Virus record (IMG/VR): IMGVR_UViG_3300001529_000023
Coordinates: 1 to 11,654 of that record
Source: a virus
Direction: 5' to 3' (one strand)
DNA: 11,654 bases
Positions 7,509 through 11,654 of this stretch are shown here, in pieces. Each line of letters starts with the position of its first letter. The first letter of the stretch is position 1. Below the pieces are notes generated by a model. That model had not been told where the DNA came from. It saw nothing but the letters and a program-made list of their open reading frames with translations, and ran no database searches. A program made the translations under genes and the position numbers.

Positions 7509-8060
7509 TTATTCTACGTTTTTAACTTTTTCTGCTAGGGCTTTAAGCTCTCTTTCTTTACGCTCTTTCTTTTTACGTGCCTTTTTCTCAGCCTGACGTT
7601 TACGGGCGGCCGCACGTTCTTTTTCTTCTCTTTCTTTTTTAATTCTTTCTGCCTCTTGTTCTTTAAAGAGTTTTTTTGCTTCCTTTACTTTCTTAACCCA
7701 ATATTTTTGATATTTCATTTCATGGGCTTTGTGTTCAACGCCTTCTTTTGTAAACCTATTACTATTTATAAGTTTAGAATAAGCAAGATAAATAGCAAAA
7801 TCAAAATCGAAAGCATCTTCTTCATTACATACTGTTTTAATTTGAGTCCCAAATTTAAAAGTAAAACGTAATACTTTATTAGGGACAAGAATTTCAATTT
7901 TTACTATTTCTGAATAAAATATATCATCTGTTATTGGATTGTTTTTTGTTTTTTGAATAGCTTTGGCAATAACACTATTTGCATATATGTCACTCGCATT
8001 AATAGTAATTGATTGTGATGTTGGTACTGATGAAAAATGCATAAGTTCTGAACAATTCAT
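7509..8060 (-). CDS. Hypothetical protein with a highly charged K/E/R-rich C-terminal tail
   Basis: A 183-aa ORF. The last ~55 aa read KKEREEKERAAARKRQAEKKARKKKERKERELKALAEKVK. The RBS AAGGAGAA is upstream and the stop is TAA. Confidence 0.55.
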   Translation of the reverse strand: MNCSELMHFSSVPTSQSITINASDIYANSVIAKAIQKTKNNPITDDIFYSEIVKIEILVPNKVLRFTFKFGTQIKTVCNEEDAFDFDFAIYLAYSKLINSNRFTKEGVEHKAHEMKYQKYWVKKVKEAKKLFKEQEAERIKKEREEKERAAARKRQAEKKARKKKERKERELKALAEKVKNVE

Positions 8061-8216
8061 TTTTTATTTTCTCCTTTTTTTATTATGATAATATTATATA
8101 ATAATTTTTTTAAAAGGTCAAATTCAAGAAAAATAGGATTTAGGTTTTTTATTTTTAAAAGAATATATAAATAGGAGAATTAGTATAGATTATACTATAA
8201 AAAGGAGGAAAAATAG
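8061..8216. promoter_or_regulatory. Divergent AT-rich intergenic region between the minus-strand block and the plus-strand late block
   Basis: 156 nt with no ORF. It contains TATAAT-like hexamers and a repeated AAATAGGA...TTAG motif at about 8133 and about 8171. The strong RBS AAAGGAGG (8201-8208) precedes the ATG at 8217. Confidence 0.3.
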
Positions 8217-11123
8217 ATGCCAGGAATAAATAATAATTTATACCCACCTATTTTTAAAACAGCATATGCGCCTGCTTTCGCTGATGAATGTAGAGTTTAT
8301 TTTGCAATATCTAATTATAATAATTTAGATGATATTGATATAAATAAAGTACAAGTAATTGTACAAAATCAAAAAACGAATCAATCTGTATTAAAAAAAG
8401 AATCATACCCTAGCGGTATAAAAATTGCGTCTTTAAAAACAGATCTTGAACGAGCAGGAGATGATAGATATTACATTGAATTAATGGATTCTGATATTGA
8501 AGGAAAAACGGGTTTTAGTTACAATCAATATTATAAAGTTCAAATTAGATTTACTGCGAAGAATAAACAAGTAAAAAATATTTCAAATTCGCAGAAAATA
8601 GATAATTGGTTAAATGAAACTTTACAATATTTTTCTTAGTGGTCAACGGTAGTATTAATAAAACCTGTTAGTCGTTTAAAAATTTCTTTAAAATATTTTG
8701 AACAAGAATCTTAGAGTAATACTTTAACAACTAATTCTTTTACTGTTCTTGGATAGGTGAAGCATGAGGCTGATTCTGATAGAGAGGAATTAAAAAATTA
8801 TAGAATATCCGTATATACTGAAGACGGAGAATTATTAGAAGATAGCGGATAGTTACTTTTTAATGAGGATAATTAGATTCAATACCATTGTCGATATAAT
8901 TTTTAGAATGGAGATTATAAAATAAAAGTATCTGTATTAACTAAAAATTTATATTTTCAATAGCAAGTTTTTGATTTTCAGGTGTCCGCCGTCGCTTATA
9001 CTAATTTTGAGGCAGTGATTTCCGCAGATATAGACAATAAAAATGCATGCGCGGTTATCTCTGTTAAAAAAGATTTAATGGTTGGATTAAATACTAATAT
9101 AGTAATTTAGAGAACTTCTAATAAAGAAGATTTTAAATATTGGTAGGATGTTTATACAACTTCAATTCCTGCAAATAGTATTTTAAATTTTACTTGGAGA
9201 GATTATACTATTGAAAGCGGCGTTTGGTATAAATATAGAGTATCTAAACGAAATCAATAGAATTTTAGATCGACTCCTATTGAAATAAAAAATCCTATTA
9301 TGGCAGATTTTGAAGATATATTTTTAACTAATATTGAAGGACAATTAAAAATTCGATTCGATCCTCAGATTAATAATTTTTCTAAAGTCGTATCGGAGTC
9401 CTTAGTAGAAACAATTGGTTCTCAATATCCTTTTATTAGAAGGAATGGTAAAGTTGGATATAAGACTTTTTCTATCTCTGGAACCATATCTTATTTAACA
9501 GATATAGGTTCTAATTTAATGCATGCTTCTAAAACATAGCTGTATGGAGATTCGGCAAATTTATATAAAGAATATAATCAATAGAACAATATTAATTTAT
9601 ATAATGATATTACTCAGGAAAAAGTTTTTCGAGATAAAGTATTAGATTTTTTATATGAGAATAATGTAAAATTGTATAAATCTTCAACAGAAGGTAATCT
9701 TTTAGTTAAATTAATGAATATTAGTTTAACTCCTAATAATACATTAAGTAGACAAATCTATAGTTTTACATGTACTGCATACGAAATTGATACTTTTAAT
9801 TATAATAATTGTATAAAATATTTTATTCAAGACCCTGGCCAATACGTTTAGGAAGATATTTTATTAATACAGAGATATGGACAGCTTTATTATCCTAATT
9901 TAAGTGTATATTATCCTCAAGAGGATGAGTCTAAACATTTTAATAATAATGATTTATATTTTGGAGCAGGATAGATTTTATCAACGTTAATAAAACAAAA
10001 GTATCAAACTTTAACTAGTGAAGATATTGATATTAATATAAATAAACTATCTTATTTAAAAATTACTTTAACAAGCCCTCCTTATTTAATTGGAGTGATG
10101 GAAAGTTAGCCTTATCGTATTACAGATAGTACATCCGTGACCAATGCAGTTTATTCTGGTCATATAGTTAAAATTAATGGTGTTCCAATTATAATTAATA
10201 AAGATGGTATATATTAGCTTTCTAATGATGATACGGCAATTACTTCATTACAATTTGTCTCTCCTTATGAACAAGGCGTTATAGATTTTGAAGTTTATAT
10301 AGAAGAAAGCGAAAAACAAAAAGTGGATTTTAAAGGATATAATAGTTTTAATAAAATAGGTCAGTTATGGGGAACTTTTAGTTTCTTTGATAGCTTAAAA
10401 GAAAATCTTTGTAATAATATAACAAATAGGTATCTTTTTACAAACGATTCTTACGAACAAGAGGTTCAGCAAATTAATGGTATAAGATTTCAGGCGGAGC
10501 CTGGAACGGTTATTTTTGTACGAGAAAATCAAGATGGCCAATACGAAAAGCATATTTTGAATGAAACTGGATTATTATAGTTTTATGATTAGGATACTAA
10601 TATTCAAGGTTTTTATTTTATGGGACCGAAACTTGAAGAGGTATCAGCGGAAGAGAAAGATAAATATGGTTTAAAACCTTATCAATTTTTTAATACGAAT
10701 GAACCTATTACTTTAGATGTTATAAAACATCCTCAAAATAATTATGTTTATTATTTTTCTTCATATAATAGTATTACTGATACTTTAACGGTTCCCGCCG
10801 GTTAGCTTCATGATTATGGAGATAATGAAATAGATGGTAATGCTTTAGTTATTTCTGATAATACTTTAAATGGTAATTTAATAGGCCCTAATATTTTACA
10901 ATTATATTCTAATTTAAATGACACTACATACACATGGGACGCTACAAGTCAAGAAGCTAGAGAATTAAATAATGAAACTTTAGGATTATTATTTGCTACT
11001 GCTAATAGCTGGATTTATTACCAAGGTATGTGGTATCCTTTTTCTCTTGATCATCAAGTACCTTTAACTCAAACTGAAGCTATAATAGATTATTATTGTA
11101 CAGTTTTGAAAAGGAGGTATTAA
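8217..11123 (+). CDS. Large late/virion-type protein (about 968 codons) in which TAG is a sense codon. About 19 in-frame TAGs; the terminator is TAA at 11121-11123.
   Basis: The track ORFs 8217-8639, 9300-9539, 10323-10580 and 10620-10805 all start in the same frame (start mod 3 = 0). Hand translation of 9300-11123 shows one frame interrupted only by TAG. Track-based positions of those TAGs are 9537, 9582, 9849, 9972, 10107, 10215, 10578, 10590 and 10803. The 8640-9299 stretch likewise holds one frame with nine TAGs and no TAA or TGA. Composition is rich in N, Y, T, S and I. There is a single strong RBS, at 8201-8208. The product family was not recognised. Confidence 0.6.
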
Positions 11124-11128
11124 TTTTT

Positions 11129-11654
11129 ATGAATAAAAGCACAAAATATCAAAAGTATTTAACTGATGCCGCTTTTTTAAAATAGCTTACTGAATTACAT
11201 ATAAAAGATTATTTTGTAAAGATAGCTGTTTTAGATTGGAAAGAGAATTTTATTGAAAATATTGAAGGTAAAGTAATAAGTGCAAGTATCAATATAGATG
11301 GGAATAGTATTATTCGTCGTACCGCAACTTTAAGTGTATTAATAGATGAAACTAATAATAACATTACTAATGTTAAAAATATTTTATCTATTAATAAAAA
11401 AATTAATTTACAAATAGGTTTTATTAATAGTACGGATAAATATTTAGATGAGCCTATTATTTGGTTTCCTCTTGGAGTTTATGTAATAACTGATAACTCA
11501 ATTTCTTACTCAAGCACCGGATTGGTAGCATCGTTACAATTAAAAGATAAAATGTGTTTATTAAACGGAGATTGCGGCGGGACCTTTCCCGCATCAGTTA
11601 TTTTTGATACTTATACGACTATTGATGAAAATGGACATGAAGTAATTGAACGAC
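11129..11654 (+). CDS. Phage structural protein (possible tail or baseplate component), 3'-partial, with an in-frame TAG at codon 19
   Basis: AGGAGG (about 11112-11117) lies upstream of the ATG at 11129. The translation is MNKSTKYQKYLTDAAFLK-TAG-LTELHIKDYFVKIAVLDWKENF...GVYVITDNSISYSSTGLVASLQ... The frame is open for 156 codons after the TAG (about 11183-11185) to the window end. Confidence 0.5.

Follow-up and report, generated by a model that had tools for sequence, protein, structure and literature searches.

How can a reading frame of 969 codons be broken by one kind of stop codon only, and what does that codon mean there? The window analyzed here, the whole 11,654-nucleotide stretch of IMG/VR record IMGVR_UViG_3300001529_000023, poses this question on its plus strand, where a frame opened by an ATG at 8217 runs to a TAA at 11121 to 11123 (969 codons including the stop, 968 of them sense) and holds 19 in-frame TAG codons, no TGA, and no internal TAA. 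The TAGs start at 8637, 8712, 8754, 8850, 8874, 8904, 8961, 9108, 9144, 9258, 9537, 9582, 9849, 9972, 10107, 10215, 10578, 10590, and 10803, and a Shine-Dalgarno motif read from the sequence, AAGGAGG at 8202 to 8208, lies 8 nt upstream of the ATG. Each of the remaining five frames of the region is interrupted by 45 to 126 TAA or TGA codons, and a run of 968 codons free of both has a chance of about 3e-43, calculated from the TAA plus TGA frequency of 6 to 13% in the two other plus-strand frames. An earlier note on this DNA had described a single long frame broken by TAG alone, which holds, and its counts of nine TAGs in each of two stretches are right; the nineteenth, at 8637, ends the first fragment called with table 11. 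The missing base that it suspected between 8640 and 8654 does not exist: the codon at 8655 is TTA, the TAA at 8656 to 8658 is out of frame, and the frame is continuous.

That this frame is coding only with TAG translated, through stop-codon recoding as in gut phages, is supported. A search with the protein found 1148 homologs, hundreds of them full length and some of these without any TAG; one protein of 968 amino acids is 99% identical over its full length, and together with more than 1000 homologs it crosses every TAG junction. Same-length homologs with zero TAG exist, and members of the gene family are found with the standard code, with TGA as sense, and with TAG as sense. Four independent assemblies contradict the idea that the TAGs are assembly errors, as every covered TAG is kept and no change touches one: 19 of 19 in L447 (100% identity to the window) and in L004 (97.7% identity, whole gene covered), and 18 and 12 in the covered parts of L446 and L448, both cut by the locus end. 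Divergence among the assemblies is concentrated at third codon positions and mostly synonymous (synonymous versus nonsynonymous counts of 51:12, 40:5, and 24:4), and the comparison shows purifying selection on 8217 to 11123. We read TAG as sense here because the stops are of one type, the homologs are full length, and the divergence is mostly synonymous. Under table 11 the region does break up into separated fragments of 140, 120, and 105 codons, but a decayed pseudogene, four separate genes read with table 11, or TAGs created by faulty assembly or sequencing are highly improbable given one stop type over 968 codons, homologs that align over all junctions, the four concordant assemblies, and the same in-frame TAG pattern in six downstream genes of L004.

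The 968-residue product is predicted to be an FN3-rich virion or tail-module protein (PHROG 30026). Its profile matches are to phrog_30026 and Enterococcus phage homologs, and an AF2 model (pLDDT 76.7) matches only FN3/Ig-like folds and a chain of the phage T5 tail tip, the latter being one match among many FN3 proteins in the structure search. A Pfam scan of the protein matched no family. Immediately downstream, a second late gene, represented in the window by its 5' part (11129 to 11653, plus strand) and preceded by an AAGGAGG read from the sequence at 11111 to 11117, matches the tail protein families phrog_32343/phrog_1887 and forms with its neighbor a conserved pair that is also present in Enterococcus phage VRE9_2. 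This gene has one in-frame TAG inside the window (11183 to 11185) and 12 in the complete 711-residue copy of L004, whose downstream tail genes carry 1 to 12 TAGs apiece.

The rest of the window is written differently. All 12 open reading frames of positions 1 to 8060 lie on the minus strand and contain no in-frame TAG in 2533 codons, versus 20 in the 1144 codons of the plus-strand block. They include a partial GH25 endolysin (1 to 474) and an r1t-type holin (604 to 834), which make up a TAG-free lysis cassette, along with a metallophosphoesterase (1415 to 1957), an AAA_33 kinase (1959 to 2450), an RNA ligase (3045 to 4271), and a major-vault-protein-like protein of 829 amino acids (4979 to 7468). 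Small open reading frames are also found in this block. Eleven stops could be counted there (10 TAA, 1 TGA, 0 TAG), and the recoded gene ends in TAA; in the window TAG is never a terminator, and TAA and TGA are retained as stops. The code switches at the AT-rich, divergent intergenic region at 8061 to 8216, where GC content and skew switch as well. A putative sigma-70-like promoter in this region (TTGACC-17-TATAAT, 8121 to 8093, 11 of 12 consensus matches) would serve the minus-strand operon; a promoter of similar strength was not found on the plus strand, and an Rfam scan of the window returned no known RNA. Past the window edge the minus-strand block goes on with genes of DNA metabolism, gyrase and ligase among them. 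The source is probably a 118- to 140-kb tailed phage of the rumen or gut, with a host that is probably a member of the Bacillota.

This division of the genome, code neutral in one block and amber sense in the late one, resembles that of known recoded phages. As in the crAss-like, Lak, Garnet/Amethyst, and phAss-1 phages (the "Caudoviricetes code 15 clade"), TAG is concentrated in structural and late genes while other genes are TAG free, TAA and TGA still terminate, and codes differ between close relatives; the 8217 to 11123 gene even has a distant homolog with 25 TAGs in phAss-1. These phages encode a tRNA(CUA), which here is seen in relatives of the window phage. The lysis cassette is unrecoded in the window phage, in contrast to the recoded lysis genes stressed by Borges et al. 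In the Mgcod preprint (bioRxiv 10.1101/2022.06.29.495998), dual-coded phages likewise join a standard-compatible block to a block with a reassigned stop, but the cases given there involve TAG as Gln or TGA as Trp rather than the Glu suggested for the window lineage, and their boundaries differ from one that sets early, DNA-metabolism, and lysis genes against tail genes.

What is inserted at TAG is the more difficult question. The earlier note held that the amino acid could not be read from the sequence and cited TAG as Gln (table 15) as the precedent; comparison with relatives makes the residue inferable, and Gln is probably the wrong code here. TAG in the lineage of the window is most likely Glu because TAGs fall on conserved Glu rather than Gln columns, because of their codon-exchange spectra, and because related suppressor tRNAs are tRNA-Glu-like. 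Against 30 nonredundant reference homologs that do not use TAG as sense, codon 141 (8637 to 8639, motif FS-E-WS) aligns with Glu in 30 of 30, and the same column in other TAG-coded relatives holds GAA, GAG, or TAG only, never CAA or CAG; codon 310 (9144 to 9146, motif W-E-DVYT) aligns with Glu in 27 of 30. Over all 19 TAG columns of the window, the reference residues are 28% Glu, 5% Gln, and 7% Lys. When 328 TAG codons were pooled, the profile log-likelihood was best for Glu (-819), followed by Asp (-864) and Gln (-887), and as a control of the method, TGA in TGA-coded relatives was assigned to Trp (-133 versus -198 for Phe).

Ordinary code 15 is the strongest competitor, though an unlikely one. 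It would place Gln at every TAG and attribute the Glu columns to mutation of GAG to TAG wherever the conservative change from Glu to Gln is tolerated, as the authors of the Lak study proposed for the TAG-Glu alignments that they saw under TAG as Gln (PMC8346664). In the phage literature searched, amber has been reassigned to Gln alone, the public database entry of this gene is already translated with Q, among TAG-coded sequences the TAG columns are about 2-fold enriched in Gln codons, and in one column of a downstream gene L006 has TAG where its clade mates have CAA. Synonymous CAG-to-TAG change predicts TAGs on conserved Gln, however, and among reference-conserved columns the sister lineage L025/L026/L056 has TAG on Gln only, in 21 of 51 Gln cells and 0 of 87 Glu cells. 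In the window clade TAG occurs on Glu only (41 of 203 conserved cells, versus 0 of 119 for Gln), and the columns concerned have CAA or CAG in no TAG-coded sequence. As TAG is absent from those Glu columns in the Gln-type lineage, they do not tolerate Gln. The significance of the difference between the two groups (Fisher P = 5e-17) is overstated, as the cells are not phylogenetically independent. Codon exchanges also separate them sharply: TAG pairs with GAA or GAG in 39% and with CAA or CAG in 5% of cases in the Glu-type group, while 86% of pairings in the Gln-type group are with CAA or CAG. Thus, TAG in the window clade does not correspond to Gln in standard-code homologs as table 15 implies.

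The preference for Glu over Gln draws its strength from the clade. The window alone contributes 5 nats (logL for Glu minus logL for Gln, +5.0) and two TAGs on strongly conserved Glu columns; the strong signal comes from L004 (+14.5) and from the clade, whose members score +8 to +17, whereas the Gln-type controls score -14.6 to -16.7. For phAss-1, taken as a Gln control on the basis of the literature, only 8 TAGs aligned in the column test, too few to be informative. The pattern of TAG on Glu recurs in three further late genes downstream.

Suppressor tRNAs of related phages point the same way. A tRNA(CUA) is present in many contigs related to the window phage, and those of Glu-type relatives share with Bacillota tRNA-Glu the acceptor stem, the D-arm (GUCAAGCGGUU(U)AAGAC), and a short, 4-nt variable loop, differing in their CUA anticodon from the UUC or CUC of the host-type molecules. 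Among the matches listed, only Bacillota genomes combined this D-arm with a UUC anticodon loop. In MAFFT alignments 11 of 13 suppressors had tRNA-Glu as their nearest isotype or nearly tied for it, and Gln was never nearest; because tRNA-Glu is abundant in the reference set, the comparison leans somewhat toward Glu, and we give more weight to the acceptor and D-arm identity. Three contigs (L213, L212, and L215) have the gene order tRNA-Glu(UUC), tRNA-Glu(CUC), tRNA(CUA). The first pair of the Glu-type suppressors is G1-C72, C1-G72, or G1-U72, never U1-A72, position 73 is mostly A (C in L213), and the D-loop is at least as long as in tRNA-Glu. By comparison, the phAss-1 suppressor, reported as Gln, has U1-A72 and G73, which are tRNA-Gln identity features. 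ARAGORN found no CUA tRNA, which the earlier note had proposed to look for, in the window, in nine loci of its clade, or in three stretches of 20 kb from this phage, and no RF2-like gene was present among the window proteins scanned. Pattern scans of IMG/VR for the suppressor of the window clade returned only suppressors and tRNA arrays of other contigs among the matches listed, and a scan for the Gln-type suppressor returned no L025/L026/L056 contig among those listed. L213, which comes from the same metagenome, belongs to an L023-like phage and not to the window phage.

Less probable again than a uniform Gln is ambiguous decoding, in which Glu is partly amidated to Gln, two suppressors compete, or another acidic or polar residue is used. 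Many TAGs of the window fall where the alignment is variable but polar (E, D, N, S, K), with codon 298 on an R/K column, Asp has the second-best profile, and two contigs (L216 and L218) each carry two different CUA tRNAs. The composition fits neither simple model: Glu plus TAG amounts to 8.1% versus 6.5 to 7.1% in the references, Gln plus TAG to 5.25% versus 3.6 to 3.8%, and TAG adds about 1.8% to the composition with no matching fall in Glu or Gln. Conserved columns, however, hold 86 TAGs on Glu versus 7 on Asp, 1 on Gln, and 11 on others, a distribution best fit by one meaning, and the suppressors are without both GatCAB determinants. Pyrrolysine or programmed readthrough is scarcely credible, as the "tRNA-Pyl" name given to the CUA tRNAs is an ARAGORN default, these tRNAs are canonical (56 to 66 bits on the standard model) and nearer to tRNA-Glu than to tRNA-Pyl, Lys at 7% of TAG columns is no enrichment, the window proteins scanned include no pyl genes or domains (pylS, pylBCD), and 20 TAGs in about 1100 codons that share no common context indicate a general reassignment.

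Taken together, we consider a two-dialect phage with an amber-sense late block, in which UAG most likely means Glu via a tRNA-Glu-derived suppressor, a likely explanation of this locus. The minus-strand block, with its tRNA-repair-like trio, vault-like protein, and lysis cassette, would be readable by an uninfected host. The late block from 8217, in which TAG makes up about 1.8% of codons and termination occurs at TAA or TGA only, could be translated in full only when a tRNA that decodes amber is available, and virion production may thereby be tied to the phage's own translation switch. The suppressor, presumably encoded in the genome of the window phage itself, would derive from tRNA-Glu by an anticodon change from CUC to CUA that mirrors the codon change from GAG to UAG, and the host glutamyl-tRNA synthetase may charge it with Glu. 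GluRS normally reads the anticodon, which counts against this step, and it would have to tolerate A36. GatCAB rejects tRNA-Glu by two features, the missing U1-A72 pair and the longer D-loop (PMC2811023). Because the suppressors lack U1-A72 and have a long, tRNA-Glu-type D-loop, they would escape this enzyme and keep their Glu. With slightly less confidence, we think it probable that a GluRS-charged, GatCAB-ignored suppressor makes UAG Glu, that the same late genes exist in four coding states (standard, UGA as Trp, UAG as Gln, and UAG as Glu) within one family of Bacillota phages of about 140 kb, and that table 15 mistranslates about 2% of residues in the virion proteins of this family.

Amber recoding of late genes is already established; the new part, judged from comparative sequence data, is probably its meaning. 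To our knowledge, no virus or prokaryote is catalogued with UAG as Glu. Among eukaryotes this reading belongs to the nuclear codes of peritrich ciliates (table 30) and Blastocrithidia (table 31), which are whole-genome codes that reassign UAA too. The proposed phage code likewise would read amber as Glu through a tRNA of tRNA-Glu type whose anticodon matches the stop codon, but it would change UAG only and in only part of the genome, with TAA still the main stop. A literature search for amber-to-Glu reassignment in phages, with subscription journals mostly outside its scope, found no report. In code 15 phages TAG is taken as Gln, and one study (PMC9523058) showed this by mass spectrometry for two crAss-like phages, whereas in the window phage TAG tracks Glu columns and avoids Gln columns. 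Borges et al. observed TAG-to-Gln and TGA-to-Trp as the only reassignments and built their mechanistic argument on GlnRS and TrpRS as host enzymes that phages can hijack.

If UAG is Glu in this lineage, then in the late genes examined gene callers using code 15 put Q for E at about 2% of residues, an error that would affect structure prediction, proteomic searches, and phylogenies, and tRNA-Glu-like CUA suppressors may interest genetic-code engineers. Beyond GlnRS and TrpRS, a third host synthetase would be open to co-option by phages. The choice of amino acid would then be linked to host biology, as hosts that make Gln-tRNA indirectly offer GluRS and not GlnRS, and sister clades that read the same genes in four codes would constitute a natural experiment on code switching.

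The plus-strand frame from 8217 to 11123 runs from ATG to TAA over 969 codons, the stop included. TAG occurs in frame 19 times, TGA never, and TAA only as the terminator. The ATG follows a consensus Shine-Dalgarno sequence (AAGGAGG, 8202-8208, plus strand) at a distance of 8 nt. Each of the remaining five frames of this interval holds 45 to 126 TAA or TGA codons, and given the TAA plus TGA frequency of the two other plus-strand frames, 968 codons free of both would occur by chance with a probability of about 3e-43. An earlier note, made from the sequence alone, had described a frame of about 969 codons broken by TAG alone and had counted nine TAGs in each of two stretches of it, and it was right on both points; the nineteenth TAG, at 8637, closes the first fragment predicted under translation table 11. 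Its suspicion that one base was missing near 8640-8654 proved unfounded: position 8655 begins a TTA codon, and the neighboring TAA is out of frame.

By the evidence of its homologs and strain variants, 8217-11123 is a single gene. A public protein of 968 aa (P0001) is 99% identical over its full length, and most of the 1148 homologs are 900 to 1050 aa long. Some homologs of equal length have no TAG at all, such as a 970-codon open reading frame of gut phage MT835469.1 and many on IMG/VR contigs; full-length homologs of this kind lead us to reject separate table-11 fragments. The same phage is present on ENA contigs of 118 to 140 kb. One assembly (L447) is identical to the window; two others (L446 and L448) share about 98% identity with it, as does L004, a contig from IMG/VR. 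All TAGs within reach of these four assemblies are kept, and strain differences are mostly synonymous (synonymous to nonsynonymous, 51:12, 40:5, and 24:4), so we also reject the TAGs as errors. The window and L004 differ at 66 nucleotides, 55 of them at codon position three. Where the earlier note would have counted an absence of homology and codon periodicity against its own reading, full-length homologs and a third-position bias were found. Its proposal that amber is recoded to sense is supported by TAG-spanning homologs and by TAGs kept between strains, and we regard it as virtually certain that TAG is a sense codon in this phage lineage. Amber recoding of phage genes is, as such, already known.

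This gene family is unusually informative about which amino acid is inserted, because its IMG/VR loci fall into three groups by stop-codon usage: standard (about 42 loci), TAG-sense (about 25 loci, with 8 to 29 TAGs per gene), and TGA-sense (13 loci). As references, we used 30 nonredundant homologs in which TAG is not sense. At the 19 TAG columns of the window, reference residues are E (28%), D (11%), S and N (9% each), K and R (7% each), and Q (5%); the column of codon 141 is E in 30 of 30 references, and that of codon 310 in 27 of 30. A profile-likelihood test, with substitution profiles drawn from the sense codons of the queries themselves, gave pooled log-likelihoods of -819 for E, -864 for D, and -887 for Q over 328 TAG codons in 20 nonredundant TAG-coded genes. 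Applied to the TGA codons of TGA-coded relatives, the test chose W decisively (-133 versus -198 for F).

Columns with at least 70% E in the references carry TAG in the window, L004-L013, and L044-L053, and all other cells of TAG-coded sequences there are GAA or GAG, never CAA or CAG. On reference-Q columns, TAG appears only in L025, L026, and L056, plus one case in L060; the first three loci, our Gln-type control, have no TAG on E columns. This lineage-specific pattern, the decisive one, is reproduced in three independent downstream genes. Taken over four genes, logL(E) - logL(Q) per locus is +5.0 nats for the window alone, +14.5 for the near-identical L004 (41 TAGs), +8 to +17 for other members of the window clade, and -14.6 to -16.7 for the control loci. 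On columns with one dominant reference residue, TAG occupies 41/203 conserved-E and 0/119 conserved-Q cells in the window clade, 86/471 and 1/274 in all loci whose TAGs track Glu columns (Glu-type), and 0/87 and 21/51 in Gln-type loci; Fisher's test gives 5e-17 to 2e-21, values that are overstated because cells are not independent events. TAG exchanges with GAA/GAG in 39% and with CAA/CAG in 5% of pairings in the Glu-type group, and with CAA/CAG in 86% in the Gln-type group.

The amber codon of the window lineage thus probably specifies glutamate. That TAG means Gln here and that its occurrences arose from GAG at tolerant sites, an explanation proposed for some Lak alignments (PMC8346664), seems unlikely. 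Synonymous CAG-to-TAG changes would fill conserved Gln columns, as in the control lineage, but such TAGs are absent from the window clade; moreover, neither CAA nor CAG occurs at the conserved Glu columns of any sequence, nor does TAG in the Gln-type lineage, and these columns therefore do not tolerate Gln. Under the glutamate reading, a rough neighbor-joining tree places the window inside one TAG = Glu clade, with a second elsewhere; the TAG = Gln clade adjoins a standard-code clade, and TGA = Trp loci group with a few standard-code loci. Across L004-L082, this one late gene family most likely spans four coding states: standard (about 42), TGA as Trp (13), TAG as Gln (L025, L026, and L056), and TAG as Glu (about 20).

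Neither the window nor the 20-kb stretches of this phage yielded a tRNA gene, and the anticodon-CUA tRNA that the earlier note suggested seeking is not within the window. On related Glu-type contigs, however, tRNA(CUA) genes with good tRNA scores are present and form two families of amber suppressors. The first (L213, L219, L217, L044, and L055) has an acceptor stem GGCCC.../...GGGUC, a D-arm GUCAAGCGGUU(U)AAGAC, and a 4-nt variable loop, as in Bacillota tRNA-Glu. When bacterial genomes were scanned for this D-arm joined to a UUC anticodon loop, all of the records listed were Bacillota, and GGCCC(C/G)TTGGTCAAGCGGTTAAGACACCGCCCTTTCACGGCGG... was the most frequent sequence. L213 (3170-3523), L212, and L215 have the order tRNA-Glu(UUC), tRNA-Glu(CUC), and, about 130 nt downstream, tRNA(CUA), with sequences identical across the three contigs. 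The second family (L021, L049, L051, L053, plus the contigs that contain L027, L031, and L060) combines a D-arm UAGUGGAG..ACAC with an anticodon loop CUCUAAA, both similar to those of tRNA-Glu(CUC) of phAss-1; the phAss-1 loop, CUCUCAA, differs only in having C36 where the suppressors have A. In a comparison with 432 Bacillota tRNAs that ignored the anticodon, a reference set rich in Glu, the nearest isotype was tRNA-Glu, or a near-tie with Asp, for 11 of 13 suppressors and Gln for none.

Bacterial GatCAB accepts tRNA-Gln via U1-A72 and rejects tRNA-Glu via G1-C72 and the extra D-loop base U20B (PMC2811023). The phAss-1 suppressor, reported as Gln-inserting, has U1-A72 and G73, as in tRNA-Gln of these phages and of Bacillota. 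In the Glu-type suppressors, the first pair is not U1-A72, and the D-loop is at least of tRNA-Glu length. Given these features, the most economical mechanism would be that host GluRS, presumably tolerating A36, charges the CUA tRNA with Glu, that GatCAB leaves the product alone, and that UAG is read as Glu. Other features of these tRNA arrays include an anticodon-UUA (ochre-cognate) tRNA in the TAG-recoded L049 (4269-4343), where TAA is still the stop of the genes examined, an oddity also reported for Lak phages (PMC8346664). tmRNA genes within the arrays of L046 (6130-6407), L217 (3426-3735), L216 (7441-7791), and L218 (4350-4717) adjoin or lie near amber suppressors. In L216 (7888-7964 and 8409-8483), and likewise in L218, a tRNA(CUA) gene with a Glu-like D-arm is accompanied by a second tRNA(CUA) gene of a different type, so that a single phage might have two amber decoders.

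The plus-strand block of the window contains 20 TAGs in 1144 codons and continues in L004 with six further genes of 1 to 12 TAGs each, among them members of the PHROG families annotated "tail protein" and "tail fiber." For the 968-aa protein, the sole match is PHROG 30026, a family without assigned function. AlphaFold models it (pLDDT 76.7) as a string of beta-sandwich domains that match FN3/Ig-like proteins and a tail-tip chain of phage T5, and in Enterococcus phage VRE9_2 its homolog directly precedes the counterpart of the gene that follows it in the window. Because of this gene order, the tail-family neighbors, and the model matches, we call it a putative tail-module structural protein.

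On the minus strand, 12 open reading frames from 8060 down to 1 contain no TAG in 2533 codons and end in TAA (10) or TGA (1). G+C is 29 to 43% here versus 24 to 28% in the plus block, with opposite GC skew. A near-consensus sigma-70 promoter (TTGACC-17-TATAAT, 8121 to 8093) is directed into this block; none of equal quality was found toward the plus-strand gene. The block encodes an 829-aa protein (4979-7468) with a major-vault-protein shoulder (PF11978, 2.5e-23), Vault_3 repeat domains, and a long coiled-coil tail, which matched no PHROG family, is conserved in all assemblies of the phage, and in one strain variant has an additional weak Band_7 match. An RNA ligase (PHA02142 OB-fold plus RNA_ligase), an AAA_33 (polynucleotide-kinase-like) kinase, and a metallophosphoesterase cluster within 1415-4271 and look like a tRNA/RNA repair set, noteworthy in a phage family that relies on its own tRNAs. 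A 183-aa protein and several small open reading frames have no assigned function. Stop-free plus-strand frames at 6383-7525 (380 codons) and 3582-4304 (240 codons) oppose the vault-like and RNA ligase genes at the window's GC-richest parts and are probably shadow ORFs. On longer contigs, the block extends to genes for DNA metabolism: gyrase B, gyrase A/topoisomerase IV, DNA ligase, and GIY-YIG. L446 and L447 have an uninterrupted gyrase A/topoisomerase IV gene (781 aa), whereas that of L448 (14820-18230) is split by an inserted GIY-YIG endonuclease ORF (pieces of 169, 251, and 608 aa).

Dual-coded amber-recoded phages likewise combine a TAG-free block that the host can read with a late block in which amber is sense, and likewise never terminate at TAG. 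One departure is the lysis cassette (1-834, minus strand), an r1t-type holin and a GH25 endolysin truncated by the window edge (on longer contigs it has 490 aa and a CHAP domain): published models stress recoded lysis genes, but this cassette lies in the TAG-free block without an in-frame TAG. From the holin, the GH25/CHAP lysin, the Enterococcus phage relatives, and the Bacillota-like tRNAs, we infer a Bacillota host.

Stop-codon recoding, block-wise dual coding, and suppressor tRNAs are all well described in phages. Borges et al. observed only TAG-to-Gln and TGA-to-Trp in phages differing from their host, the phAss-1 authors assigned amber to Gln, and the public database entry for the 968-aa gene is translated with Q at TAG. 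A full-text literature search, with most subscription journals outside its coverage, turned up no description of a phage that reads amber as Glu. Some nuclear codes of eukaryotes (tables 30 and 31) assign UAG to Glu, and the assignment is not known from elsewhere. What would be new here is glutamate as the meaning of amber, together with four coding states in one phage gene family. The glutamate reading, the most likely one on consistent, purely comparative evidence, is directly testable by proteomics.
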